54,831 bases of DNA from a virus (IMGVR_UViG_3300043394_000753:1-54831); one strand, 5' to 3'; positions 1-53,723 are shown, counted from the first letter of the stretch. Notes: a model not told the origin generated them from the letters alone. Numbers and translations are program-made.

Positions 1-652
1 CATTGTAAAATGAAGCCGCACCTTCTTTAAAATTAACGCTGATTGCCGCTGTTGGAAATTGTTTATCATTTACATGCGTTGCCAAATATTTTCCAATCGG
101 TGCATTTATTCCAATATCGAATGTTTTGATAATGGTTGCTTTACTTAATAATTCAATGATTCTTTGATTTTGACCAATAGTATCGTTAGAGTATTGTGAT
201 GTGTAATCAACATCGTCAACTCTATAAATTATAAATTTAGAAGGTAATTTCTTTTCAATCCATAATGGAGCAAATATTTTATATTGCTCATCATACAACT
301 TTGTAATATTATGAGATGCTCCGTATTGGTATTGGTCTTCATATTGACTAGAATAGTCAGAGTATAGCGTAACATCAGAGTCTGTTCTTAAGACTTGATA
401 TTTCTCACTGTTTGGCAATTTTTTAAAAAACAAAGCAACGTCAGATGAATATACTCCATCTGGCTTTATGTCGAATTTTTGATATTCTACCTTTGCAAGC
501 TCTTTGTTTGCGTTAAAAGCACTTAAAAATAAATTAGAATTTGAGTCAACAATTACTTTAATATTACTTGTTAACTTGGGGTTGGTACGCAACAATGCAA
601 ATGATTTATTATCATCAACATTACGCACAACACTTGTATTAATTATAGCCAT
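1..652 (-). CDS. virion structural protein, 5' part (runs off the window edge)
   Basis: Not in the ORF track. ATG at 652 opens a frame reading MAIINTSVVRNVDDNKSFALLRTNPKLTSNIKVIVDS..., open to the window edge. Late-type motif upstream; continues the structural gene block. Confidence 0.75.
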   Translation of the reverse strand, partial: MAIINTSVVRNVDDNKSFALLRTNPKLTSNIKVIVDSNSNLFLSAFNANKELAKVEYQKFDIKPDGVYSSDVALFFKKLPNSEKYQVLRTDSDVTLYSDYSSQYEDQYQYGASHNITKLYDEQYKIFAPLWIEKKLPSKFIIYRVDDVDYTSQYSNDTIGQNQRIIELLSKATIIKTFDIGINAPIGKYLATHVNDKQFPTAAISVNFKEGAASFYN

Positions 653-22411: not shown

Positions 22412-24204
22412 TATCCGTTACTTAATTTTCTGAATACGTTAACAAAGGAATCCTTAGTAGGAGCACCTGTATCTTTATTACCATATGCACTTACATCAAT
22501 TGTTTTATTAATATCTGCAACATCATCAGGTTGTACATAAAATCGGCCTCTACCCGTATTAAACATTGATTCAATTTCTGCTTTATCGCGAGGACGCCCT
22601 GGTTTAAGTTTAATAACTGCGATTAATCTTTCAGGAAAGTCATGAATTGTACTCGCACCTTCAAATGTAATTTCACAATCTTCCATTATTAAATTTCCTA
22701 TTACCATCATTGGATTTAATGGATTTCCAACTGTTAAATGCCATTGTCCAGTAGGGTCACCCGATAATAATGCAGCAACCGCCTGTCCACCCTGTGGTGT
22801 GTTAAACATTTCCATTAAACTTCCACCTATCAGATTATTTAAAAATTTATTATTTGCAAGATTTTTATAGTTAGCAGGATCTAAAACTCCTTTAAACATA
22901 TCTCCCATATCTTTTATGATTGTACCTAAAAATCCTCCATAATCACCTGATCTAAGTTTTCCTAAATCTCCAAGTGGCTTTGCAACCGCACCATCTCCAA
23001 TATATCTTACGCTACCTCCCCAAAATGGAGCATTATTATATGTTAATGCTAAAAGATTGGCAAGTTGATCGAGCATCATTACCTTTGGGTTTACTCCCTC
23101 AAAACTTTTAAGTTCATATTCAAATCTTAATGAAAACGCTTGTTCAAATTTTAATCCTTTTTCTCGAACCATCATGTCGCGTATAACGTTTAATGGACCA
23201 AATACATGATTAGGATATGTGTTTGAAAATGAATCATATCCTGCATTTTGTTTATTTGCGTTTGAAGAAACTGCATCTCTTCCGGCTGCTGCGTTTGTTG
23301 CTGCAGAAAGAAATCTGCTACTCTCAATTATACCTCCAAATGTACCACTAGAAGCCTGTTGTTTTGATTGCAGCTCTTGCACATCTGCCGTTGCTGTGTT
23401 ATAATTAAATCCATGCGAAAATTTCAAAATTTCAGTTAATGGATTTCCGGCAGCTTCACCAATCCACGTCACTGCTCTTGCAAGATCGGGCTGTTGAATA
23501 GGAACCATTTCCTTTCCAGCGGGATTAAGACCAGATGGTGTTATAATATCATCGGTGCATGGATACGCAAATCTTCGTAAAGTTATGAGCATACTATTTG
23601 GAATTTTTCCAAAAAAACGAGTCAGCGCAAAATCTGAATACTGATATCGATAAGCGTAGTTATTTTCAAGCTTTCCAGTTAATTCAATAATTTGAGTAGC
23701 GGTGGGATTAATTAAACTAAGTGGATCTATTTTTCTGTATCTGCCTGATTTAACATTAAGTCCATCCTTGCCCATATCAAGTGGATTACCTCTATAATTA
23801 ATTAAAGAATATTTATTAAAGGCAGAATATGGTCTTGGGCCAACCTGTAATACCTTTCCTTCATTTTTTCCAGCTTGAGTTGATGTGTATTTTTCAGATT
23901 CGTTTTCATCTGTATAATACTTAGAATTGGTTGTATCGATCGTGGAAAATGGTTGATCCGTTACCATCGATCTTGCCTGGGTTTGGTCAGGTGGATTTAA
24001 AGATTTTAAACCTCTATTTCTTGACTTCTTTTTACCTACTGTTTGCGTTGGGTCTTCTCCGTCTATGTCGTATCCGGTAACGCTTTTTACTGCACTGATA
24101 AATCCTTTACCTAGCGATGTAGTTTTTGCGTATGAAAAACCTTCACTTGTTTTTTTTCTAGTAGATTCAGCTAATTTTTCAAAATAATCTTTTTCTGCTG
24201 CCAT
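22411..24204 (-). CDS. putative baseplate tail-tube initiator (gp48-like)
   Basis: 597 aa; C-terminal IGNLIMEDCEITF....FPERLIAVIKLKP tube-like fold pattern; directly upstream of the gp53-like gene. Confidence 0.5.
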   Translation of the reverse strand: MAAEKDYFEKLAESTRKKTSEGFSYAKTTSLGKGFISAVKSVTGYDIDGEDPTQTVGKKKSRNRGLKSLNPPDQTQARSMVTDQPFSTIDTTNSKYYTDENESEKYTSTQAGKNEGKVLQVGPRPYSAFNKYSLINYRGNPLDMGKDGLNVKSGRYRKIDPLSLINPTATQIIELTGKLENNYAYRYQYSDFALTRFFGKIPNSMLITLRRFAYPCTDDIITPSGLNPAGKEMVPIQQPDLARAVTWIGEAAGNPLTEILKFSHGFNYNTATADVQELQSKQQASSGTFGGIIESSRFLSAATNAAAGRDAVSSNANKQNAGYDSFSNTYPNHVFGPLNVIRDMMVREKGLKFEQAFSLRFEYELKSFEGVNPKVMMLDQLANLLALTYNNAPFWGGSVRYIGDGAVAKPLGDLGKLRSGDYGGFLGTIIKDMGDMFKGVLDPANYKNLANNKFLNNLIGGSLMEMFNTPQGGQAVAALLSGDPTGQWHLTVGNPLNPMMVIGNLIMEDCEITFEGASTIHDFPERLIAVIKLKPGRPRDKAEIESMFNTGRGRFYVQPDDVADINKTIDVSAYGNKDTGAPTKDSFVNVFRKLSNG

Positions 24205-30856: not shown

Positions 30857-31114
30857 TTAGTCACCTGCCATTACAACAAGTTCCCTTAATTTTTTAAGCG
30901 TTTCACACTTTTCATATTCTTCTAATTCTACAAAATATTCTATAAGAAGATCTATAAATCCACTTCTTTGTCCAATTCCATGTGGAATGTCTATTGTGTT
31001 TTTATTGTCTTGATATACTAAAAATCGATTAACGGTTTTTGTAAAATTTCGTGTTATTATGTAATAGCTGGACCTCATCAAAGAGTCTCTTTCCTCTTTA
31101 GTAATTTCTTCCAT
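30857..31114 (-). CDS. small protein with C-terminal UVR-like motif
   Basis: YFVELEEYEKCETLKKL. Confidence 0.7.
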   Translation of the reverse strand: MEEITKEERDSLMRSSYYIITRNFTKTVNRFLVYQDNKNTIDIPHGIGQRSGFIDLLIEYFVELEEYEKCETLKKLRELVVMAGD

Positions 31115-31235: not shown

Positions 31236-31394
31236 ATACCTAGCCTTGGCAATTATTTTTCGCATGGTAATGGAAGGTTTTTTATACTCTTTTTTATTTC
31301 TGAGTTCCTGTAATTGTTTGGTTGCAATTACCTTTTGCTTTAATTTTTTTAAAGCCTTTTCTATATTATTGCTTTCTATGTGTATAATTAACAT
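31215..31394 (-). CDS. rpsU: phage-encoded 30S ribosomal protein bS21 (59 aa, absent from ORF track)
   Basis: Manual translation: MLIIHIESNNIEKALKKLKQKVIATKQLQELRNKKEYKKPSITMRKIIAKARYKQSKDL. Carries the bS21 IE.ALK..K.K and Y.KPS..R motifs; the MLII start and KA.Y tail are Bacteroidota-like. Confidence 0.88.
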   Translation of the reverse strand: MLIIHIESNNIEKALKKLKQKVIATKQLQELRNKKEYKKPSITMRKIIAKARYKQSKDL

Positions 31395-31639
31395 GATAGT
31401 TTATCAATTATTTTTTTAAGCTCACTGCATTTTTCATACTCTTCACGTTCTTTAAAAAAGTCTAATACAGTTTGAACCCCTTCGATTTTGTCAGAAGAAG
31501 GTGCGTCATGTTTAAGTGCTCCCATTTTATGTTCAACTATGGATTTATATATAAGTTCCATCATGTCTTCCTTTGAGGACTGGTGTAGTTTTTGTATAAA
31601 TCGAGTTTCTTGGCCGTTGTATTCTTCTAAATCATCCAT
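31388..31639 (-). CDS. small protein with C-terminal UVR-like motif
   Basis: FFKEREEYEKCSELKKIID. Confidence 0.7.
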   Translation of the reverse strand: MDDLEEYNGQETRFIQKLHQSSKEDMMELIYKSIVEHKMGALKHDAPSSDKIEGVQTVLDFFKEREEYEKCSELKKIIDKLSC

Positions 31640-32426
31640 TGGAATCTTTAATCTTTTTTAGTAATTCAATTTGGGATTCTGTTAGATTAATAGGTAAAGT
31701 TCTAAGTTTTACCATTAAGTTACCATACCCATTTGCATTATATATTGGCATTCCTTTGCCTACGACTCTAAGCATTTTTGAATCATGCGAACCTAGAGGA
31801 ACCTTTATTTTAACAGTATGTACTTTAGTTTTGACTTCAAATTCTCCACCTAGTAACATATCTATCCAATCTAATTGGAGATCTACATAGATATCTGAAC
31901 CATTTACTATAAGGTCAATATCTTGCATAACATTTACTGTTAATATTATATCTCCTGGCCTTGCTCCTTTGTTAATTGGATGATGTTGGCCTTTTTCTTT
32001 GATTTTAAGTTTCGTGCCATTCGGAATTCCCTTAGGTATATTAATATTAAATCCACCAGTTCCGACATCGATGTATCTTCTCGTTCCTTCATAACTTTCT
32101 TCTATTGTTATATTTATAGATACTCTAACATCGAATCCCCTAACCTCGTCACCAAATGATTGGTCAAACGCGCCAGCAAAATCATATCTATTAAATATGT
32201 CTTGCCATGCATCGTTAATATTAAAGGACCTACCATTGATAGAGTCATGTTTTTTTCTACGATCAGGGTCTCCTAAAATTTCGTAAGCTTCTGAGATTTG
32301 TTTAAATTTAGTATCGTCTCCTCCTGTTTTGTCAGGGTGGTGTTCCTTTACTAATTTTCTATATGATTTTTTAATCTCGTCATGTGAAGCATCTTTAGAA
32401 ACGTTTAATGTTTCATAATAATTCAT
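31632..32426 (-). CDS. dnaJ: DnaJ-class co-chaperone (J domain plus C-terminal domain, no zinc finger; CbpA-like)
   Basis: YYETLNV...IKKSYRKLVKEHHPDK...AYEIL.D J domain; DnaJ_C motifs GDIILTV, GKGMP and GNLMV. Confidence 0.9.
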   Translation of the reverse strand: MNYYETLNVSKDASHDEIKKSYRKLVKEHHPDKTGGDDTKFKQISEAYEILGDPDRRKKHDSINGRSFNINDAWQDIFNRYDFAGAFDQSFGDEVRGFDVRVSINITIEESYEGTRRYIDVGTGGFNINIPKGIPNGTKLKIKEKGQHHPINKGARPGDIILTVNVMQDIDLIVNGSDIYVDLQLDWIDMLLGGEFEVKTKVHTVKIKVPLGSHDSKMLRVVGKGMPIYNANGYGNLMVKLRTLPINLTESQIELLKKIKDSNG

Positions 32427-32655: not shown

Positions 32656-32940
32656 TTATATTTGTTCTAAAATATCTTTGATTCTAGAACATTTTTCGTA
32701 TTCCTCTACTTCAATGAATATTTCTAACATTTGATTTAAAGTTTTTGAAAGAGACTTAATATCAAAACCATTACGCTTCATTGTTTTAATATCTATTCCA
32801 TTTTCCACAATCATGTCATAGTTTTCGTTGGCTAATTTCATTTTTAGCTCGTACATCATCTCTTCCATTAAAGCTTCTCTTTTCATAGTTTCTATCTCGT
32901 CATTTTCTTCAAAAAGGTCATTAAAATTGAATTCGTCCAT
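32656..32940 (-). CDS. small protein with C-terminal UVR-like motif (start reassigned to 32940)
   Basis: IFIEVEEYEKCSRIKDILE; the track's TTG start lies inside the regulatory element. Confidence 0.7.
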   Translation of the reverse strand: MDEFNFNDLFEENDEIETMKREALMEEMMYELKMKLANENYDMIVENGIDIKTMKRNGFDIKSLSKTLNQMLEIFIEVEEYEKCSRIKDILEQI

Positions 32941-32954
32941 GTTGTATGATTTAT

Positions 32955-33032
32955 TTATTATAGTGTAAATATAAACAAAAAAAGCCAAACAAAAAATATT
33001 TGGCAATTTATTTACAAAAAGTTATTAACAAT
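32955..33032 (-). promoter_or_regulatory. conserved ~80-bp element, copy 3
   Basis: TTGTTAATAACTTT...GCCAAA/TTTGGC hairpin-T7-GTTTATATTTACACTATAAT. Confidence 0.75.
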
Positions 33033-33852
33033 TTACATTAATTGCAATCCGGTTAAGAAGATCTATTTCATTTTCAATGTTATTTTTAACTAATGCACTG
33101 TCATAATGATTAGCCAAACCCGCTATTTTATTTTGCTCGCTATTTCTTATTGAATATTGTGTATATTTAGATCTAACATATTCAGCTCCCATAAATTTAT
33201 AGTGTAGTAATTTTATAGGAAAGTTGTTGAATGTTTCTAATATATCATATTGCATTTTCCATCTTCCCCATGGATGTCCATTCCATTCCCCAGTTGGCCT
33301 GATTTCAACGGGAACCGGATGCAATATTTCTCCATCTAGTTCTGAATTTAATTTAATTTCATGACAACCCTCAATCCATTCAAGCTTTTTAATTTTATTT
33401 GGATTAATAAGAATAGGTTTTGAATACCATGGATCTGGAACACCATCTTTAATTTCATCGTATATTTGTCCATCCCCTGTCGGAAAATAATTAGATACCA
33501 TTTGAAAACCTGCTGGAAATATAACGGCTGACTTATTTTCTTTTAAAAATTCTATAATATTTGGATGGTATATAAATTCATCACAATCACTTACTATAAT
33601 ATAATCTGCCTTTCCCTTTGCTTCAGTGATACATCTGTGTTTTAAATCTAAATGTACATAGTCATTAAATGTGTTTGACGTATTATACTCTCTAACATCA
33701 ACGTTTGGATATTCTTTACATATCATTAGAGTGCTGTCTGTTGATTGATTATCTAAGACTATTATTCTTTCACAAAATTTAGAATAGTGTCTTAGATAAT
33801 ACGGGAGCATCTTCTCCTCATTCCAAACAGTAACATATGCCCATATTTTCAT
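33025..33852 (-). CDS. glycosyltransferase, GT-A fold (family 2-like)
   Basis: VWNEEKMLPYYLRHY, LDNQSTDST and DCDEF (DxD) motifs. Confidence 0.85.
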   Translation of the reverse strand: MKIWAYVTVWNEEKMLPYYLRHYSKFCERIIVLDNQSTDSTLMICKEYPNVDVREYNTSNTFNDYVHLDLKHRCITEAKGKADYIIVSDCDEFIYHPNIIEFLKENKSAVIFPAGFQMVSNYFPTGDGQIYDEIKDGVPDPWYSKPILINPNKIKKLEWIEGCHEIKLNSELDGEILHPVPVEIRPTGEWNGHPWGRWKMQYDILETFNNFPIKLLHYKFMGAEYVRSKYTQYSIRNSEQNKIAGLANHYDSALVKNNIENEIDLLNRIAINVNC

Positions 33853-34839: not shown

Positions 34840-35059
34840 AAATTTGATTTAAAATGCACGAAGTATCTGTGCTCTGTCTAAGTTTTAAATATCTTTCAAA
34901 TGTGATAGATAATTCTATCCAACCACCTGTAATAGAATCCGGGACATTGAAAATATCAGTGTAATAGTGTGGCGCCTTTTCAATACGGCCTAATAGGAAG
35001 TCAACCATACAGTCAACTTCCATATTATGAACCCATATTTTTACAAACGTATTATTCAT
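34838..35059 (-). CDS. hypothetical protein (start likely 35059; possible paralog of 48298-48495)
   Basis: The MNNTFVKIWVH start overlaps the stop of the upstream glycosyltransferase. Confidence 0.55.
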   Translation of the reverse strand: MNNTFVKIWVHNMEVDCMVDFLLGRIEKAPHYYTDIFNVPDSITGGWIELSITFERYLKLRQSTDTSCILNQI

Positions 35060-36902
35060 TTTCATTATAAACAATATTTGCTGCCATTTCATCTTTGCCA
35101 TATCTTGGCATTGCATCTAATGGAGAATTTGGATTTTCCTCATATGCCCAATCGCTTAATCCAAGTTCTTCAAATCTTTCTTTAATTTTTTCATTGTAAT
35201 ATGCACCAATAGTTCTTACTCTTCTTTGGATATCTGCCCTTGCCAAATCATGGGTATTTTGGCCAGTTGCATTATTATATAAAAACTGAACATATCCTAG
35301 TTTAGGGATTTTACATGTAATCGTTTTTAAGAAAGTTCTTACAATTAATTCATAATCATCTGCAATTGCAAGATTTCTATTATGTCCTCCAATTTCAAAA
35401 TAGGTAGATCTTCTCCATGCTCTAACATGATTTGGAACTCCAACAATATGCCTAATAGTCTTTGGATTAATATTATGTTGAGTTGCAACCTGCATCATTT
35501 TTCCGTTGTACATTTCATCTCTGTATTTTCCATATGCAAATGCAAATCCTTCTGGATATGTCTGACACTCCCAATTTTCATTAACCTCTAATGTATCATT
35601 AAAAAAGAATCCTGCTTCTGGATGTTTTTTTGCTGCTTTATATAAATCTTCAGTACACCATGGAACTAATAAATCATCATGGTCTAATTCAGCAAGAATA
35701 AATCCTTTTGCCATACAACTTGCTCTCCATTTAACTTCTCCAATATTTCCACCGCTCTTCTCTCTAAAGTCATATACCTTAACACGAGGATCTTTTGATG
35801 CAATATCTTCCGCTATCTTTAATGTCTTACCTCCATCGGTAGAATCATTCACGAGCACCCATTCCCAATTAGAATATGTTTGTTGTTTTAATGATTCATA
35901 TGTATTATACAACTTTTCCTTTGTATTATAGATTGGTGTTGTATACGAAATTAAATTTGAATCTTCAATAGAATCATTATCAAGCATAGTATACATTGAA
36001 GATATATATGCTCTTTCACCAACTTCGGTTATTGATGTATCTGGTGGAATGTTTATCCATTTTCTACGAAATTGTAAAGGCATACTTGCCATCTTTGGAA
36101 ATTCTTGCCATGATTCTCCTCTACTAACAATAGCGTCGGGTTTAAATGTAGATAAAATTAAAGATATATTTTCATCATTTTTTAAATATTTTACATTTAA
36201 ATTATCTGCCTCATACCATAAATACTTGATTGATTTTAAATCGGGCTCATCGCTACCAATATATAGAACCTTTGGCACATTTGCAGATGCCTTCTTTTCT
36301 AAATAATTATAATGTGAATATACTGCTGGTGTAAATGTAAATGCATCAGGCATATTTTTAAACACATCACTTATAAGAATTCCATCCGCGCAATAGTCAG
36401 GTTTAAATTGATATCCATGTTTATTATAAACATCAACATGTGATATATATTGAGCAAGGTCTATACCTCCAATTTTTACATTTTGTGCTTCTGCTAATCT
36501 ATAATCTAATCCTGTAAAATCTCTTTTCTCTACGTTTTGAGAAACAACATGCACCATCTTTTCAGGAAAGGCGTTTGACATTTCTAATACATATTCATAG
36601 AACCCGTCATGCACAATATTATCATCATCCACAAAATAAACCCAACCGTCTTTAAATTTTGAAATTATACTAGAGCATTGTGGATATAGCATTCCAACCT
36701 TGTCTCCTTTTTCAAAATAGTATTGGGTAGAATCATCCTTTAGATCTGATAATAATTCAGCGTCAATGTCCTTTAAGGATGCTGTATCGAAAACAACATG
36801 CCATTTAATTTCTATTCCATTCGGAATATTACTAAATACTGATTCTTTAACTGTTCTTAAATTTTGAAGTCTTGTACTTCTTGTAATTATATTGATTATC
36901 AT
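35052..36902 (-). CDS. two-domain GT2 glycosyltransferase
   Basis: N-terminal GT-A domain (YFVDDDN); C-terminal GT2 domain (TPIYNT, QQTYSNWEWVLVNDSTD, ELDHDD, ADDYEL). Confidence 0.88.
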   Translation of the reverse strand: MIINIITRSTRLQNLRTVKESVFSNIPNGIEIKWHVVFDTASLKDIDAELLSDLKDDSTQYYFEKGDKVGMLYPQCSSIISKFKDGWVYFVDDDNIVHDGFYEYVLEMSNAFPEKMVHVVSQNVEKRDFTGLDYRLAEAQNVKIGGIDLAQYISHVDVYNKHGYQFKPDYCADGILISDVFKNMPDAFTFTPAVYSHYNYLEKKASANVPKVLYIGSDEPDLKSIKYLWYEADNLNVKYLKNDENISLILSTFKPDAIVSRGESWQEFPKMASMPLQFRRKWINIPPDTSITEVGERAYISSMYTMLDNDSIEDSNLISYTTPIYNTKEKLYNTYESLKQQTYSNWEWVLVNDSTDGGKTLKIAEDIASKDPRVKVYDFREKSGGNIGEVKWRASCMAKGFILAELDHDDLLVPWCTEDLYKAAKKHPEAGFFFNDTLEVNENWECQTYPEGFAFAYGKYRDEMYNGKMMQVATQHNINPKTIRHIVGVPNHVRAWRRSTYFEIGGHNRNLAIADDYELIVRTFLKTITCKIPKLGYVQFLYNNATGQNTHDLARADIQRRVRTIGAYYNEKIKERFEELGLSDWAYEENPNSPLDAMPRYGKDEMAANIVYNENE

Positions 36903-47962: not shown

Positions 47963-48301
47963 TTAATATTCAGAACCGTTAGAACCTTTGATTGGCCTTT
48001 TATCTTGAATATTTTTTAAAGATTCTTTTTCTTTTTTATTTTCTGTATTTACAGTAGTAAGACCCCATTGTAAAATAAACCAACTTGCCTCTCTTTCAGC
48101 ATCTGCTTTAGATACCTTTAAAACATCTTGTATTCTTAAAACACAGTGCTTTATAAAATCTTCTTCTTTTTCATTTGTTGTGCTGTATTGCATATACCAA
48201 GATGGATTTTCCTTTACATCTTCGTATTTTACGCCATGATCCTTCAATTGATAATTAATTAATTCAATAAAAAGATCTCTTTGTTTTTCTCGCTTTGTCA
48301 T
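47963..48301 (-). CDS. hypothetical protein
   Basis: 112-aa ORF (WFILQWGL). Confidence 0.7.
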   Translation of the reverse strand: MTKREKQRDLFIELINYQLKDHGVKYEDVKENPSWYMQYSTTNEKEEDFIKHCVLRIQDVLKVSKADAEREASWFILQWGLTTVNTENKKEKESLKNIQDKRPIKGSNGSEY

Positions 48302-48495
48302 AGTGAAATTAGTGTTGTAAATGTATTATTATCGTTTAGTCTAATAAAATCATCATATGATATATCAACTAAATATGAATTTTCAAAATATGTTGGGGCT
48401 ATTGAAATTTGATATTCACCTGCTTCTATTTTTTCTGCTAATATCTTATTAAGATATTCTAACTCCTCAACATGTACGTAAAAATGTATTCTCAT
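48298..48495 (-). CDS. hypothetical protein
   Basis: 65-aa ORF downstream of clpP. Confidence 0.6.
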   Translation of the reverse strand: MRIHFYVHVEELEYLNKILAEKIEAGEYQISIAPTYFENSYLVDISYDDFIRLNDNNTFTTLISL

Positions 48496-48504
48496 ATTAT
48501 GTTA

Positions 48505-49191
48505 TTATCTTTTTGAATTAATTACTTCATCAATAATTCCATATTTTTTTGCTTCTTCTGCATTTAACCAAAAATCACGTGTAGCATCTTTCATTACTTG
48601 TTCTGGTTTTTTACCACAGTATTCTCCCAGTAAAGTAAATAATTCTTTATTTATTTTTTGCCATTCTGCCCAGTCGATTTCAGCGTCTTGAATGTTTCCA
48701 CTAAATCCTCCTGAAGATTGATGCAACATGGTGGTAGAGTGTCTTAAAGAACTTCTCTTGCCCTTTGTTCCAGCTCCTAATAATACAGATCCCATAGAGG
48801 CTGCCATTCCCGTGTTAACCGTACGTATATCAGATGTAATATATTCCATAACGTCTACCATTGAAAGTCCAGATTTAACACTTCCGCCGCCTGAATCAAT
48901 ATGCATAGTAATATCTCGACTATCGTTGGAATCTAAAAACATCAATTGAGCCTGTACTATAGTTGACATATTGTCGTTAACTTCGCCAGCAACCCATAAT
49001 AATCTATCCATCATTAATCTTGAAAAAATATCCATCTGTGTTGCTCTTAATTCCCTCTCCTCTAAGATATATGGAGTCATTGAGCTTTCTATTTGTTTTT
49101 GATAATAATGCATGTTCATCGAGCTAACATTATGGTCACTCATTGCATATCTTTGAAATTCTTTTCCGTAATTCATATTATAGTTGTTCAA
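48505..49191 (-). CDS. clpP: ATP-dependent Clp protease proteolytic subunit
   Basis: DIFSRLMMDR, AASMG (catalytic Ser), MLHQ (His) and RDFW (Asp); the NYGKEF..TPYILEER leader is Bacteroidota-like. Confidence 0.95.
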   Translation of the reverse strand: MNNYNMNYGKEFQRYAMSDHNVSSMNMHYYQKQIESSMTPYILEERELRATQMDIFSRLMMDRLLWVAGEVNDNMSTIVQAQLMFLDSNDSRDITMHIDSGGGSVKSGLSMVDVMEYITSDIRTVNTGMAASMGSVLLGAGTKGKRSSLRHSTTMLHQSSGGFSGNIQDAEIDWAEWQKINKELFTLLGEYCGKKPEQVMKDATRDFWLNAEEAKKYGIIDEVINSKR

Positions 49192-49468
49192 TTATGTTTT
49201 TAATTTTTGTGCACATTTCATAATTCTCATTTTCAATGTAGAATTCTAAACTTTTTTGTATTGATTGTTTATATGCATTTTGTGGAAGATCTGCTGTCAT
49301 TACAGTTCCATCTGGTGTTATTAACAAGCATAACTTTGTTTCGTTAGTTTCCCCGCTTAAGTTTCTTTGAATTAATTCAATAATTCTTTCATGAAATTGT
49401 TCGGTATCATACACGTTTCCTGTTTCTTCTATGTAGAATTCCGGTATTTCGTTCATATATTTTATCAT
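49178..49468 (-). CDS. small protein with C-terminal UVR-like motif, overlapping the clpP start
   Basis: FYIENENYEMCTKIKNIIE. Confidence 0.7.
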   Translation of the reverse strand: MIKYMNEIPEFYIEETGNVYDTEQFHERIIELIQRNLSGETNETKLCLLITPDGTVMTADLPQNAYKQSIQKSLEFYIENENYEMCTKIKNIIEQL

Positions 49469-49471
49469 ATT

Positions 49472-50320
49472 CTATTTTATATTAAGGTATTCACATAATA
49501 TATTATTATAATAATCTCTATCGGCATTTAATTCAATACCTTTATTAATATTATTTATCATATTAATACCATAATCAGCTATTATCATATTACCTTCTTC
49601 AATATTAAAAATAGGTTGAGTTAATCTCATCGTAGATACCGGTTTATTAAGACCTTCATGTACTATTTTTTCAGCAAGTTCATAATGTCTTTCGTAAAAA
49701 TGAATGTTGTCTGCAAAATGGTAATATGTTCCCAATTCTAATTCGGGATATGTTGACTTGAGCCAAAGATAAACATGTTGATGTACAAATGCAAAAAATG
49801 GCGCGTCAAATGTAAGACCATAAAAAATGTCATTGGAACGCATTTGTACTTTCATATCTAATTTATTTTCTCTAATTGAAAAGTTAAGATACATTGTACA
49901 TACAAAATCTTTATTACCCTTAAATTGATATTTAGGTTGATTTAAAAAAGCAATTGCTTGTCTTGTATTTTTATCGTTTTTAAGAGAAGTAACAACCCAA
50001 TCCAATTGTTCTCCAAAAAGAAGAGAACCATAATTTGAATTTATTTCATTTGTATTTGGATTTGTTATATTTTTCCAAAATCCTGAAAATTGATTAATGT
50101 AATCTACGTTAGTATCTTTGTTTAAATACCAAACTAATTCTCCTGCAAAGTATTTCCAGTTGAATTCTCTATTTTCAAAATTTGCAAATGGCTGAGTAGG
50201 ATCTACGGCGTATCCATTGTACATCAATTCAGTAACTTCAAGGTCTCTTGGTTTAGAGACCTTTCCGTTTATTTTTATATCTGATATGATATTTTGAAAA
50301 ACCTTTGAAAAGTTATTCAT
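49472..50320 (-). CDS. thymidylate synthase-family enzyme, T4 gp42-like dCMP hydroxymethylase type
   Basis: EINSNYG, DFVCT (catalytic Cys), MRSNDIFYGLTFD (Asp at the specificity position) and HFYERH motifs. Confidence 0.8.
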   Translation of the reverse strand: MNNFSKVFQNIISDIKINGKVSKPRDLEVTELMYNGYAVDPTQPFANFENREFNWKYFAGELVWYLNKDTNVDYINQFSGFWKNITNPNTNEINSNYGSLLFGEQLDWVVTSLKNDKNTRQAIAFLNQPKYQFKGNKDFVCTMYLNFSIRENKLDMKVQMRSNDIFYGLTFDAPFFAFVHQHVYLWLKSTYPELELGTYYHFADNIHFYERHYELAEKIVHEGLNKPVSTMRLTQPIFNIEEGNMIIADYGINMINNINKGIELNADRDYYNNILCEYLNIK

Positions 50321-50354
50321 ATATTATATTATTAAGTTAATAAGTTATTTTAAT

Positions 50355-50381
50355 ATTATACTATTATTTAATGGAAAGTTT
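50355..50381 (-). promoter_or_regulatory. AAAC-N17-TATAAT promoter-like motif upstream of the TS-family gene
   Basis: Minus strand AAAC-TTTCCATTAAATAATAG-TATAAT. Confidence 0.65.
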
Positions 50382-52334
50382 CTCATCACCCTTTTTATGA
50401 GAAATAGTATAAACCTTAGGTCCTTTAACAATAGTTCCTAAAATTATCGAGTCGGCTAATAAATCCTCAACATATGTCTGAACTGCACGTTTTAATGGTC
50501 TTGCACCATATTGTGCATCATATCCTTTTTCTGCAAGAAATATCATTGCCTGCTTTGTTAATTTAATGGTATAATCTTGTGCAGACATTCTTTCAACAAC
50601 CTTTTTGATTTCAATTTCTGCAATTTCTATAACATGTTCTTCATTTAATCCATCAAATAAAACAATTTCATCTAATCTATTTAAAAACTCAGGTGCAAAT
50701 TTATTTTTAAGTTCCTTTCTAATAACTGTCTCCATTTCTATTTTGTGAGACGTAATAGACGTTGAACTACTGAAACCAATTCCAGCTCCAAACTCTGCAA
50801 CTCTTTTTGCACCAACATTACTTGTCATAATAATAATGGTATTTGTGAAATCAACAGTTCTTCCTAAACTATCCGTTAATCTTCCCTCATCTAATACTTG
50901 TAAAAGTGTATTAAAAATATCCGGGTGTGCTTTTTCTACCTCATCGAATAATACAACTGAATATGGTTTTCTGCGAACTTGTTCAGTTAATTGACCACCT
51001 TCCTCATGTCCAACATATCCAGGAGGAGAACCAATAAGTCTACTCACATTGAATTTTTCTTGGTATTCAGACATATCGATTCTAATTAATGCGTCTTCAC
51101 TTCCAAAATAATATTCAGTTAGTGCTTTAACTGTTTCTGTTTTACCAACACCAGTCGGTCCGATAAACATAAATGAGCCAATTGGTTTTTTAGATGAACT
51201 AACACCTGTTCTGCTTCGTTTGATAACTCGACAAAGTCCTTCAACTGCGCTATCTTGGCCTATAATCATAGACTTAAGTTCTTTTTCCATTTGAACAATA
51301 ATTCTATTCTCATCATCAGTCATTCTTGCGATTGGAATTCCGGTAGCTTGCGATATTGTCTCCGCAATATCTTCGTATGTTACCTGCTTTTTATTAGATC
51401 TAAGAGTCTCCTCCCATTCTTTTGTTGTTTTTATTATATCTTTCTTTTTAGCCAGTTCTAAATCTCTAAACTTACCCGCTTTCTCGTAATCCTGTTGTTC
51501 AACTGCCACCATTTTTTGAGCTTTAAATACTTCAGCCTCTTTTTCAAGTTCCTTAATGTTTTCTGGCATTTTAACCTCCTTCAAATGTACTTTAGCTCCG
51601 GCTTCATCCATTATATCGATAGCTTTGTCTGGTAATTCTCTTTGTGTGATATATCTGTCAGATAATGTTACACATGCTGCAATAGCCTCATCACTATATG
51701 AAACCGAATGGTAATCTTCGTAGTTTGGTTTAATTCTTGTAAGAATTTCAATTGCATCTTCAATTTTAGGCGGATCAATAAAGATTTCTTGGAATCTTCG
51801 AGTAAGAGCTCCATCTTTTTCAATGTTTTCTCTATATTCATCAAGGGTAGTTGCACCAATACACTGTACCTGTCCTCTTGCCAATGCTGGTTTTAATATA
51901 TTACTTGCATCTAAAGAACCGCTTACTCCACCTGCGCCTACTATTGTGTGAATCTCATCAATAAAGACAATTACATCTTTATTTTCTTTTAATTCATCTA
52001 CAATATTTTTCATGCGTTCTTCAAATTCACCACGGTATTTTGTTCCCGCAACAATATTTGAAATGTTTAATGAAATTATCTTTTTATTAAGAAGAGTCAT
52101 TGCAACCTGTTTATTCACAATGCGTTGTGCAATTGCTTCAACAAGCGCAGTTTTACCAACTCCAGGATCTCCTAATATAATTGGATTGTTTTTCTTTCTT
52201 CTTGAAAGAATCTGGCAAATTCTATATACTTCCTTTTCTCTACCGATGATAGGGTCAAGTTTTCCTTCAATCGCCATTTGGGTTAAATCTTCTCCGTATA
52301 AGTCGATAAACGGTGTGCTAGTTTTCTTTGACAT
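50364..52334 (-). CDS. clpC: ClpC-type AAA+ unfoldase lacking the N-terminal Clp-repeat domain
   Basis: GDPGVGKT and FIDEIH (D1), [11 protein letters not shown] (UVR M-domain), GPTGVGKT and FDEVEK (D2), IGF ClpP-docking loop; begins directly at the pre-D1 linker. Confidence 0.9.
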
Positions 52335-52407
52335 ATTTAAATTTAATTTATAATATTTGTATGTGAAAAAATGATTTTGTTTCTTCTATATTATATTTAT
52401 TTAAATT

Positions 52408-52440
52408 AAAAAAGGCTGCCCAATTAAGGACAACCTTTTT
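52408..52440 (-). terminator. intrinsic terminator
   Basis: GGUUGUCC-UUAAUU-GGGCAGCC-UUUUUU on the minus strand. Confidence 0.75.
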
Positions 52441-52492
52441 AATTCGTTCTATTGTAAATAAAAACCTATGTTATATTATATATCAGTAATTT

Positions 52493-52699
52493 TTACGACT
52501 TTAATCGTGTAAGAGATCTTTGTACGCAATCTGAACATAGAACTGTTGTGGTTTTTTCACCAACCTCCATCCAATTCTCACAAGAACCACTTTCCGGAGC
52601 ATAATCTCCCCATTTACTTTCTGATGGATTTGAATTTGAGCAAATCATCAACCTTGCCTTAGTTCCGTTTTTTCGTGTAATCTCCTTTGTTTTCGACAT
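52493..52699 (-). CDS. small Cys-containing (zinc-ribbon-like) hypothetical protein
   Basis: 68 aa with four Cys including CSDC. Confidence 0.65.
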   Translation of the reverse strand: MSKTKEITRKNGTKARLMICSNSNPSESKWGDYAPESGSCENWMEVGEKTTTVLCSDCVQRSLTRLKS

Positions 52700-53723
52700 A
52701 ATTAAAATATTTGTAATTTATATTTGTATTCCTTTGATTTGTTTCAATTTTTCTTTGATTATTTTCTGGTAATTTATTCCGATTCTCATATTTCTTATTG
52801 GTGTGGGAAAATTTAATTTCCTGCCTTTAAAAAAATCATTTTTTTCACCAAAATAGGGGCCTAGGCCTAAATACCAAAATTTAGGAATATCCAGTATCAA
52901 GGGGTGATTCCCCATAATATTGAGGGTACCATCAGGGCCTCCGGAGAATATCAAAATCCCTGCAACACCACCACAATTTGCCACAATACTATGATACTTA
53001 TTATAAAAACCCATATTGCGGTGAAATTTATAGTCTATCTGAATATCATAGTAATACTGTCTATATTAATCAAATATCTTTTAGTACTTATATAGAATAA
53101 CAGATTTTATATTTTATTTAAATACTTTAAATCCCTACAACGACGACGCCCATTCTGAGCTAAGGTAGTGAATCACCATTTTGAGGGGTATTTTAAAATG
53201 TGTACTGTGAGACCCTGCAACCTCTGTCCTCTAGGTTTTACCCTTGGAAGCAAAGACTTTAGTTATATTGACAGTACTCCCGTTTGTTTCAGAATCTGTG
53301 AAACTTTTTTTAAAAAGATTACACATCCCTCTGAGGGCACTGGGGAATATCAATTCTTAGGGCAGTATCGGTTATAGTGTGTATTATAGTTCTTAGTGTT
53401 TCTCTAAGTCTCACCGCAACCCTTGCGCCAACCTAATTTCCCCGGGGAATATTTTTTGTCCAGGGTACTTTGTCGATTTAGGGTACGCCAGCTGCTTTGA
53501 ATCGGGTGGAGGTATATTCATATTCTTAGGGAATTTGAGTGTCTCAGAGGGCCGGCAGGCCTGCAGACTATGTAGCATGCATATTCTCTGGACTAGGATA
53601 ATTGGTCGGCCTAGGGGAAGTCGCAATGCTATATTACTAATATTAGTTAGTAGTTCTAATAGATGACCATGCCCTTCCATCTCTCAACCCTCAGAGCCCA
53701 TGTAATTTGGCCTTTCTATGAGG

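Follow-up and report, generated by a model that had tools for sequence, protein, structure and literature searches.

A phage ClpC without an N-terminal domain, and a family of small phage proteins whose C-terminal hairpin resembles the ClpC M-domain

We found that ClpC without its N-terminal Clp_N domain is the usual form in viruses, and that one such phage ClpC shares its operon with a member of a large, unannotated family of small phage proteins whose C-terminal helical hairpin superposes on the ClpC M-domain. The window (the whole 54,831-nt stretch of DNA that was analysed) derives from a large ocean or lake phage, a jumbo myovirus of whose genome it represents about 20%, and the host is probably a member of the Bacteroidota. 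A preliminary description of this DNA had reported genes for ClpC, ClpP and four small proteins, and all six ORFs are present where it put them, on the minus strand (Table 1). It had also proposed that the small proteins replace the missing N-domain as exchangeable adaptors. The evidence presented below argues against that proposal, and leads us to suggest tentatively that the hairpin may instead mimic the M-domain.

Table 1. Features of the clp operon and of the dnaJ neighbourhood, with positions counted from the first nucleotide of the window
Feature	Position	Strand	Basis
mini85, family paralogue, EEYEKCETLK	30857..31114	-	family HMM E 1.1e-18
mini83, family paralogue, EEYEKCSELK; start overlaps dnaJ stop by 8 nt	31388..31639	-	family HMM E 7.9e-28
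DnaJ-like co-chaperone, J domain and DnaJ_C	31632..32426	-	PF00226 80 bits, PF01556 98 bits
mini94, family paralogue, EEYEKCSRIK	32656..32940	-	family HMM E 1.9e-14
ClpP peptidase, 228 aa from TTG start	48505..49191	-	PF00574 195 bits
mini96, EEYEKC-family paralogue inside clp operon, motif ENYEMC	49178..49468	-	family HMM E 5.8e-13
Thymidylate-synthase-family gene between clpC and mini96	49472..50320	-	PF00303 78 bits, PHROG 160
ClpC-type double-ring AAA+ unfoldase, 656 aa, no Clp_N	50364..52334	-	Pfam AAA, AAA_lid_9, AAA_2, ClpB_D2-small
FGAGIGF loop of ClpC, residues 515-521, presumed ClpP-docking loop	50772..50792	-	read from sequence
M-domain hairpin of ClpC, residues 257-296, tip motif including Tyr283	51447..51566	-	alignment to B. 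subtilis ClpC

The phage ClpC contains two AAA+ modules, a lid and a D2-small domain (PF00004, PF17871, PF07724 and PF10431, all above their Pfam cut-offs), and its match to PHROG 4871 starts at profile position 169 of 764. The M-domain, a short coiled coil of ClpC length, aligns without gaps to residues 405-491 of B. subtilis ClpC (E 3e-12) and scores 20.4 bits against the Pfam UVR profile (E 4.3e-4), under the cut-off of 21.5. In the alignment, Tyr283 is paired with B. subtilis F436, which by our count is the F of QEFEKAA. Tip residues Y283, E284, A286, R290 and D291 are invariant across 29 phage ClpCs, as are F515, G518, G520 and F521 of the FGAGIGF loop (GIGF itself spans residues 518-521), which we take to be the site of ClpP docking. 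The same tip motif, [YF]E.AA..RD, occurs in the Bacteroidota ClpCs that we examined. Pfam searches and alignment bore out the preliminary account of this protein: both ATPase domains, a UVR-type M-domain, an IGF loop and no Clp_N.

The Clp_N domain of ClpC is where adaptors, substrates and phospho-arginine bind, and it has a stabilising effect on the resting state. The corresponding profile (PF02861) had no match in the phage ClpC or anywhere else in the window, about 20% of the genome, and none in the best 120 ClpC homologues (637-671 aa). Across viral loci this is the prevailing arrangement, with fewer than 55 aa open upstream in 77 of 80, whereas the nearest cellular ClpCs carry an N-terminal extension of at least 120 aa (78 of 80, the other two ending at a contig edge). 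These closest cellular relatives are Bacteroidota proteins with 53-58% identity to the phage ClpC. No credible separate Clp_N gene was found in five large relatives; a 20-bit Clp_N match in one of them was rejected as a separate N-domain, as it sits in an unrelated-looking 481-aa ORF.

The operon runs clpC, thymidylate-synthase-like gene, mini96, clpP. Residues 51-226 of ClpP match positions 5-181 of the 182-position Pfam profile and are preceded by ~45-50 additional N-terminal residues; the catalytic Ser, His and Asp were recognised by eye. A reported overlap between mini96 and the clpP start exists if the TTG is used, but an alternative ATG at 49176 lies 1 nt past the mini96 stop codon. In each of the 17 clade loci, whose ClpCs are 68% identical or more, a mini96 orthologue lies between the thymidylate-synthase-family gene and clpP, and the former gene holds the same operon position. 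Such conserved gene order inside one phage clade is weak evidence for a functional link.

Six-frame translations were scanned with the motif [YFW]E.[CA]..[LIVM][KR]. Four of the five matches in the window, all with Cys, are the C-terminal motifs of the small proteins, found at the sites first reported for them; the fifth, FEQAFSLR (23125-23148), has Ala instead of Cys and lies within a 616-aa frame. The EEYEKC motif is not a chance resemblance, because it is conserved across a family of at least 1191 unannotated proteins of ~55-210 aa. The N-termini had been called unrelated; instead, the four proteins are found in searches with one another (E 4e-5 to 4e-3), their profiles align over nearly their full length, and mini85, mini83 and mini94 are 23-30% identical to the 96-aa mini96. 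Each constitutes its own orthologue group (among the 120 matches listed, 63 belong to mini83, 35 to mini85, 16 to mini96 and 6 to mini94), and none of the four could be assigned to a Pfam or PHROG family. They are full-length paralogues of ~80-100 aa, produced by a fourfold expansion, specific to this clade, within a large phage family.

Three of these paralogues, mini85, mini83 and mini94, flank dnaJ, and dnaJ with family paralogues on its flanks recurs in two other loci (L024 and L025). Two of the four genes abut or overlap their upstream gene, and a terminator-like hairpin (33004-32984) lies just upstream of mini94. The idea that the copies sit behind different promoter classes found no support: promoter-like matches were near shuffle expectation (17 observed versus 14.4±4.2 shuffled, and 38 versus 26.2±5.6).

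The hallmark of the family is a C-terminal helical hairpin of 40 residues with an invariant E-x-Y-E-x-C at its tip. In the hairpin model (pLDDT 87.4; helices 5-23 and 27-39), invariant residues E25, Y27, E28 and C30 occupy the turn and the start of helix 2. Their position at the tip, and not along the helix interface, suggests one conserved partner. VIA-align superposed hairpin residues 1-40 on residues 410-449 of S. aureus ClpC with an rmsd of 0.8 Å over 40 residues and Z of 5.5-5.6, values of 5-6 being, by the tool's own note, within the range of common arrangements for a helical hairpin of this length. The superposition therefore places Tyr27 on residue 436. The hairpin also superposes on B. 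subtilis ClpC 410-449 and ClpL 324-363, and UVR or M-domain hairpins account for 10 of the 23 entries listed in the structure comparison (Foldseek list, VIA-align), in which comparable scores go to designed binders and to the P22 scaffolding hairpin. Fold searches with the whole mini models gave no clear match; the AF2 model of mini96 has a pLDDT of 71.5.

Pfam UVR (PF02151) had no match among the four minis up to an E-value of 10. Among 150 diverse family members, with an E-value limit of 0.1, it matched eight (best 4.7e-4), the lowest E-value of the recurrent families; the unrelated DHR-2_Lobe_A matched ten, an indication of the noise level in this search. The nearest atlas cluster with a Pfam family is viral, 81 aa in length, with UVR in 17% of its members (score 0.86). 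A profile search of PDB sequences with the mini family found no UVR protein. Aligned by hhalign to the full ClpC alignment, the family profile chose other regions (in two comparisons, with probability 0.5% and P 0.11) and gave no M-domain match; aligned to the M-domain alone, it took the expected register, but for no more than 16 columns (P 0.011, probability 3.7%). The notion that the tails mirror the ClpC M-domain thus holds for the superposition and for the Tyr at the F436 position, but homology to UVR or M-domain sequences is not significant.

Co-folding of mini96 with the phage ClpC, a check suggested at the outset, lends weak support to an interaction: three runs scored 0.32, 0.33 and 0.30, against 0.00 for the best control, with at least 94% shared contacts and a partner pLDDT of at least 75. 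However, this is a pass of the low-reliability kind, a score that defines no interface. When the tool was calibrated, 58 of 80 solved complexes passed, and so did 2 of 110 mismatched pairs; the passes that scored no more than 0.60 came from only 7 of the 80 solved complexes and from both mismatched pairs, and such passes are more often wrong than right.

Both the N-domain and contacts between M-domains keep ClpC inactive; its deregulation kills bacteria and serves as a drug strategy. Against this background, the models lead us to suggest, with the doubt due to a proposal that has less than an even chance, that the mini hairpin is an M-domain mimic that modulates ClpC-type unfoldases. The free-standing hairpin would dock head-to-head on M-domain tips, in competition with the M-domain/M-domain contacts by which ClpC is kept in inactive assemblies. 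The target of mini96 in this clade would be the phage's own ClpC, which, by analogy with S. aureus ΔN-ClpC, would bind ClpP without an adaptor and yet stay locked through its M-domain contacts. For ClpC-less phages that infect the same host phylum, the target would be host ClpC or another host chaperone, and perhaps likewise for the three paralogues beside dnaJ. The minis would accordingly regulate the assembly state of the unfoldase and would not be substrate-delivering replacements of the N-domain.

Host ClpC as a target fits the presence of the family in ClpC-less phages related to those of Bacteroidota: in one near-complete genome (G029), the 805-aa neighbour of a family member matches phages of Flavobacterium, Polaribacter, Cellulophaga, Maribacter and Bacteroides. 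The tip motif shared with Bacteroidota ClpCs is a further point in its favour. Put at its broadest, the proposal would be that Bacteroidota phages possess M-domain mimics in the form of a large family of free-standing proteins, which cap the M-domain tips of ClpC and break the resting state, acting on host ClpC in small phages and, in one jumbo clade, also on an N-domain-less phage ClpC for which M-domain contacts are the only brake. In this full form we regard it as rather unlikely.

A quite different reading, to which we would also give something short of an even chance, is that the family is unconnected with Clp: the hairpin would be a generic dimerisation or binding element of small phage regulators (of replication, transcription or host takeover), and the place of mini96 would reflect the gene order of one clade. 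Among the six near-complete records (at least 90% complete), all six encode a family member and none encodes ClpC; the complete circular 60.8-kb GenBank genome MW202828.1 likewise encodes a member but lacks ClpC. Where small phage genomes are near-complete, family members have replication or small basic proteins as neighbours and no chaperone genes, among them a VirE-like primase/helicase and a putative DNA ligase (KLDGVRC, read by eye). The lack of significant homology to UVR or ClpC, the commonness of helical hairpins as folds, and a 145-aa long form of the family with a different N-terminal part all agree with this reading. It does not readily account for a tip whose invariance suggests a single partner, for the match of the Tyr to F436 in both sequence and structure, for the retention of mini96 in the operon of all 17 clade loci down to 68% ClpC identity, for the three paralogues around dnaJ, or for a co-fold score above that of the controls.

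The original proposal, that the minis are exchangeable UVR-tailed adaptors that replace the N-domain and deliver stage-specific host targets to phage ClpCP, now appears improbable. In its favour are four paralogues in one genome with an N-domain-less ClpC, mini96 inside the operon, the weak co-fold support and the precedent of an adaptor-like phage protein for host ClpCP, SPO1 Gp53 (PMC6873191). However, the proposal fails the distribution test that was suggested for it, since the family and such ClpCs are each found without the other. Besides the family members in phages that lack ClpC, N-domain-less ClpC occurs with no mini in all 12 large records from other clades, among them a complete 321-kb phage genome (G045) that also encodes ClpP. 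Loss of the N-domain in viral ClpC is thus independent of the mini-proteins, and the family and this form of ClpC are not an obligate pair; the mini96 subfamily alone is linked to it, in the 17 clade loci. In addition, the N-terminal halves are short (~50 aa) and homologous and do not provide diverse binding domains, three of the four paralogues lie away from the clp genes, and the separate promoter classes lack support.

It is about as improbable that the hairpin imitates the UVR domain of another system, either the UvrB C-terminal contact with UvrC, with host nucleotide excision repair being blocked, or the hairpin of McsA. The hairpin does superpose on McsA 131-171 (Z 5.9, 22% identity) and on residues 16-55 of the UvrB C-terminal domain (Z 4.3), members occur in replication modules of small phages, and the thymidylate-synthase-family gene beside mini96 may, to judge from its family, serve to make modified bases. 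Yet UvrB gave the weakest of the UVR-type superpositions, homology is below significance, and no link of the family to repair genes was seen in the loci examined. Equally remote is an action of mini96 on ClpP, say by helping the N-terminally extended peptidase to assemble or to process its propeptide: the two genes are 1 nt apart or overlapping here and adjoin in 13 of the 17 clade loci, but a gene of ~870 nt separates them in the other four, and in a more distant genome (G001, ClpC 53% identical) the mini lies ~9 kb from clpC with no clpP alongside. This placement also counts against M-domain mimicry, as do the neighbours in small phages and the 12 records in which an N-domain-less ClpC has no mini.

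If the minis do bind M-domains, they would be ClpC modulators of a new, genetically encoded class, as well as a simple probe of resting-state control, and M-domain mimicry of this kind would do in protein form what certain small molecules and peptides do in deregulating ClpC. Should they not bind, they would still be among the larger uncharacterised small-protein families of aquatic phages, and the clp link would be one of local gene order only.

The concept that phages manipulate or bring Clp machinery has precedents. PMC6873191 describes SPO1 Gp53 as a 25-kDa adaptor-like protein for host ClpCP, a likeness to the minis in concept, and passages of a jumbo-phage review note ClpS, ClpP, ClpA and ClpX (PMC7824862); the passages of that review on ClpP, Clp, AAA+ and UVR make no mention of an N-domain-less ClpC or an EEYEKC mini family. 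The mini hairpin is like the UVR domain (PF02151; UvrB C-terminus, UvrC, McsA and the ClpC M-domain) in being a ~40-residue hairpin with aromatic-Glu-x-small-small-x-Leu-basic at the start of helix 2, superposing at 0.8-2.2 Å. It differs in having an invariant Cys for the first Ala and usually Lys for Arg-Asp, and in belonging to free-standing phage proteins.

The phage ClpC and ClpP are like those of Firmicutes and Bacteroidota (B. subtilis, S. aureus; PDB 3pxi, 6em8, 9qqr) in the two AAA+ rings, the length of the M-domain, the aromatic residue at 436, the GIGF loop and the adjacent bona fide ClpP; unlike the B. subtilis and S. aureus proteins, the phage ClpC lacks the N-terminal Clp_N domain. 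According to passages of PMC12583610, F436 of S. aureus ClpC lies at the M-domain tip and is required for M-domain contacts; engineered ΔN-ClpC binds ClpP yet forms inactive head-to-head rods, and is proteolytically inactive until the M-domain contacts are abolished, ΔN-ClpC-F436A being highly active. We found no description of a natural viral ΔN-ClpC in the literature searched. In its domain set and aromatic tip residue, as read from its sequence and set beside those passages, the phage ClpC is the natural counterpart of the engineered protein. With the N-domain lost almost universally in viruses and kept in their Bacteroidota relatives, nature has therefore made the biochemists' ΔN-ClpC, usually with a ClpP of its own.

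The six open reading frames (ORFs) at issue lie where the preliminary description placed them, and the motif of the EEYEKC family stands at the C-terminus of all four mini-proteins (mini83, mini85, mini94 and mini96); elsewhere in the six-frame translation, a loose form of the pattern gave a single further match, with Ala, inside a long frame. The N-terminal parts of the four, described earlier as unrelated, proved divergent yet homologous. A profile of the four mini-proteins recovered at least 1191 proteins at E ≤0.01, and a profile of 18 sequences recovered 429 clusters (50% identity) at E ≤0.001, with sizes of 54-208 aa among the 150 matches listed from it. The motif residues E, Y, E and C show little or no variation, and the best 120 matches split into four groups (63, 16, 35 and 6), one for each paralogue of the window. 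A form of ~145 aa has another N-terminal part, itself conserved (around HP.FW.GMFKKLI).

Pfam and PHROG assigned no family to the four mini-proteins, no annotation to the ~145-aa form and, save for two weak partial matches, no family to nine members from other phages. None of 120 matches listed from the four-protein profile carried a precomputed Pfam domain, and an atlas search grouped the family with viral hypothetical proteins. A tblastn search of 50,697 GenBank phage records with mini83 and mini96 gave no match at E ≤0.01; in one genome where tblastn had given none (MW202828.1), profile search found a member. The string EEYEKC was not found in the literature, and among the papers listed for phage-encoded ClpC, for jumbo phages with ClpC/ClpP and for marine Bacteroidetes phages with ClpC, none was seen to describe either this family or a phage ClpC that lacks the N-terminal domain (N-less ClpC). 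In G038, a near-complete viral record of 66 kb, two near-identical copies of a family member and its neighbours lie one near each contig end, an arrangement consistent with a terminal repeat or with circular permutation of the assembly.

Features of the window and of related loci, and structures aligned to the model of the mini-protein tail
Feature	Position	Strand	Evidence or remark
clpC, N-less	50364-52334		
Divergent thymidylate-synthase-family (thy-like) gene	49472-50320	-	78 bits; between clpC and mini96
mini96	49178-49468	-	
ClpP	48505-49191	-	Full-length Pfam match, 195 bits
Collagen-repeat protein, 769 aa	37959-40268	-	304 bits as collagen-repeat protein; C-terminal Peptidase_S74 chaperone domain
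Two family-2 glycosyltransferases	33025-33852, 35052-36902	-	Near collagen-repeat protein
Terminator-like hairpin	33004-32984	-	Just upstream of mini94; sole one in 30.7-33.2 kb
mini94	32656-32940	-	
DnaJ	31632-32426	-	J domain and DnaJ_C; no other Pfam families listed
mini83	31388-31639	-	
Ribosomal protein bS21, phage-encoded, 59 aa	31215-31394	-	PF01165, 38.6 bits; between mini83 and mini85
mini85	30857-31114	-	
~145-aa family form	L104-L183, e.g. L178:3512-3946		Frequent on short viral contigs
Family-member copies in G038	L223 4533-4808; L224 1352-1627		
S. aureus ClpC	410-449		VIA-align, rmsd 0.8 Å over 40 residues, Z 5.5-5.6
B. subtilis ClpC	410-449		VIA-align
McsA	131-171		VIA-align, Z 5.9, 22% identity
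ClpL	324-363		VIA-align
UvrB	C-terminal domain		VIA-align, Z 4.3

The preliminary description tied these proteins to N-less ClpC and set co-occurrence as its own test; their distribution runs otherwise: the family occurs without ClpC and N-less ClpC occurs without the family. A motif scan of viral contigs yielded 80 loci, 76 of them with a family member. ClpC was present in one of the 33 motif-bearing records tested (contigs of at least 18 kb) and in none of the six that are at least 90% complete, all six of which have a family member (one weak, E 0.0024). In the complete circular GenBank genome MW202828.1 (60,850 bp), the member directly follows a VirE-like primase gene, and ClpC is absent. 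Conversely, no family member was found anywhere in 12 large records (88-321 kb) of other clades, versus 7/7 large records tested of the window's clade (viral relatives whose ClpC shares at least 68% identity with that of the window), where copies number one to four and reach four in five records. Because the majority of viral records are fragments, failure to find a gene in them is weak evidence, and our conclusions rest mainly on complete or near-complete records. Because each is found without the other, this very large family of hairpin mini-proteins and N-less ClpC are independent; a link to the clp operon is confined to the mini96 subfamily and, for that subfamily, to the window's clade.

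Within that clade the tie is fixed. In 17/17 viral loci with ClpC at least 68% identical, the order runs clpC, thy-like gene, mini96 orthologue, clpP; in the window, 3 nt separate the thy-like gene from mini96. The other 63 loci (ClpC 51-54% identical) contained, within 10 kb, no family member at E ≤0.001 and no ClpP or thymidylate-synthase match to the window's proteins. The thy-like gene could encode a dUMP or dCMP hydroxymethylase-type enzyme for modified DNA. The overlap reported between mini96 and clpP holds if clpP starts at the TTG at 49191; the alternative ATG at 49176 lies 1 nt past the mini96 stop. In the phage ClpP, ~50 residues precede the Pfam match, possibly a propeptide. The remaining paralogues (mini83, mini85 and mini94) are grouped around the phage dnaJ, whose stop the mini83 start overlaps by 8 nt, and a DnaJ match is also flanked by family members in two other viral loci (L024 and L025). 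The terminator-like hairpin favours the ATG at 32940 as the mini94 start, with a new transcription unit there. Promoter and terminator scans of the AT-rich DNA of the window were uninformative, and the different promoter classes proposed for the copies could not be read from them.

Window ClpC (656 aa) is a complete double-ring Hsp100 (AAA, AAA_lid_9, AAA_2 and ClpB_D2-small), with a GIGF loop and an M-domain whose alignment to B. subtilis ClpC 405-491 is gapless. The ClpC N-terminal domain (Clp_N, PF02861) is absent from it and from the whole record. Its best 120 database homologues are all 637-671 aa long, and none has PF02861. Judged from reading frames, N-domain loss is a mark of viral ClpC copies, since 77 of the best 80 IMG/VR loci have fewer than 55 open upstream codons (two have ~170, and a contig end cuts one), whereas in 78 of the best 80 prokaryotic loci, drawn from one genome per species, the protein is extended N-terminally by 120 aa or more (median 181), and in the remaining two a contig end truncates the locus. 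The N-less ClpC/ClpP module is typical of large phages: record G045 (321 kb, with direct terminal repeats and rated 100% complete) encodes an N-less ClpC and, ~26 kb away, a ClpP (196 bits), with no Clp_N and no mini-protein. One candidate Clp_N, a 481-aa ORF in the relative G060 (L228 1732-3177, G060:C1) with a marginal match of 20 bits over 27 profile positions, is unlike a Clp N-domain and was treated as chance.

Homology of the tail to UVR motifs or the M-domain is unproven by sequence statistics. The Pfam UVR model matched none of the four mini-proteins and 8/150 diverse members at E ≤0.1 (best 4.7e-4), compared with 10/150 for an unrelated family; a profile search of PDB sequences returned nothing relevant (four unrelated matches, E 0.28-6). 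Against the M-domain alone, hhalign gave the expected register over 16 columns (P 0.011); against full-length ClpC, neither the family nor the hairpin picked the M-domain. A model of the 40-residue tail (pLDDT 87.4) consists of two helices with a three-residue turn between them; the invariant residues lie in this turn and where helix 2 begins. Foldseek with this model returned 27 chains at E ≤10, none significant. We also ran VIA-align on 23 entries, ten of them UVR or M-domain hairpins. In the gapless superposition the invariant Tyr coincides with ClpC residue 436, the position that sequence alignment also gives. The modelled likeness to a UVR/M-domain hairpin is thus a weakly consistent lead and not proof, because small helical models often reach such Z values. 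With the AF2 model of the whole mini96 protein, Foldseek found no match at E ≤0.001, and a wide VIA search reached Z ≤5.9, on assorted helical proteins.

Co-folding of mini96 with full-length phage ClpC, from alignments of 29 sequences for each, returned a verdict of weak support (0.32, 0.33 and 0.30, versus 0.00 for the best control); the score is for the pair as a whole and says nothing of the M-domain as contact site. At least 94% of contacts were common to the runs, and partner pLDDT was at least 75. In calibration, 58/80 solved complexes and 2/110 mismatched pairs reached the mark, but passes at ≤0.60 comprised only 7 of the 80 solved complexes and both mismatched pairs; by the tool's own rating, a pass this low is likelier to mislead than to be correct, except where the guess was already probable.

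The window is an entire IMG/VR virus record of 54,831 bp, which CheckV rates ~20% complete, and the full genome would therefore be roughly 270 kb. The window's G+C content is 32%, its minus strand carries nearly all of the long ORFs, a search for tRNA genes gave none, and megablast of 48000-53000 gave no match. A sub-threshold Baseplate_J match (19.2 bits against a cut-off of 21.1), together with the collagen-repeat protein, which we read as a tail fibre, suggests a tailed phage, read here as a myovirus. The host is probably a member of the Bacteroidota, because the nearest cellular ClpCs (53-58% identity) are almost all from that phylum. For a 499-aa protein of the window, the only GenBank relatives are those of Flavobacterium phage MaF61 and of uncultured phages sized 462-735 kb. 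MaF61, which is cultured and whose protein is a distant relative, carries neither the family nor ClpC and so does not offer a ready experimental system.

The hairpin might mimic the tip of the M-domain and compete with contacts between M-domains, a reading that we regard as possible but doubtful. By such competition mini96 would release the phage's own N-less ClpC, and other family members would act on host ClpC. This keeps the docking idea and the host-ClpC alternative of the preliminary description and drops its replacement of the N-domain by substrate adaptors. Two other possibilities, that the family has another partner and that the operon position of mini96 is inherited gene order, are jointly about as likely. 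In near-complete small phages, members neighbour a primase/helicase gene, small basic proteins or a gene resembling a ligase; in the window's clade, mini96 abuts clpP in 13/17 loci and is separated from it by an insertion of ~870 nt in 4/17. In a study of S. aureus ClpC lacking its N-domain, the resting state is lost and ClpP is bound without an adaptor, inactive head-to-head assemblies formed through the M-domain tips persist, and mutation of the tip residue F436 renders the truncated protein highly active (PMC12583610). The tip is invariant in 29 phage ClpCs (Y283, E284, A286, R290 and D291), and the Bacteroidota ClpCs examined have [YF]E.AA..RD at the same position.
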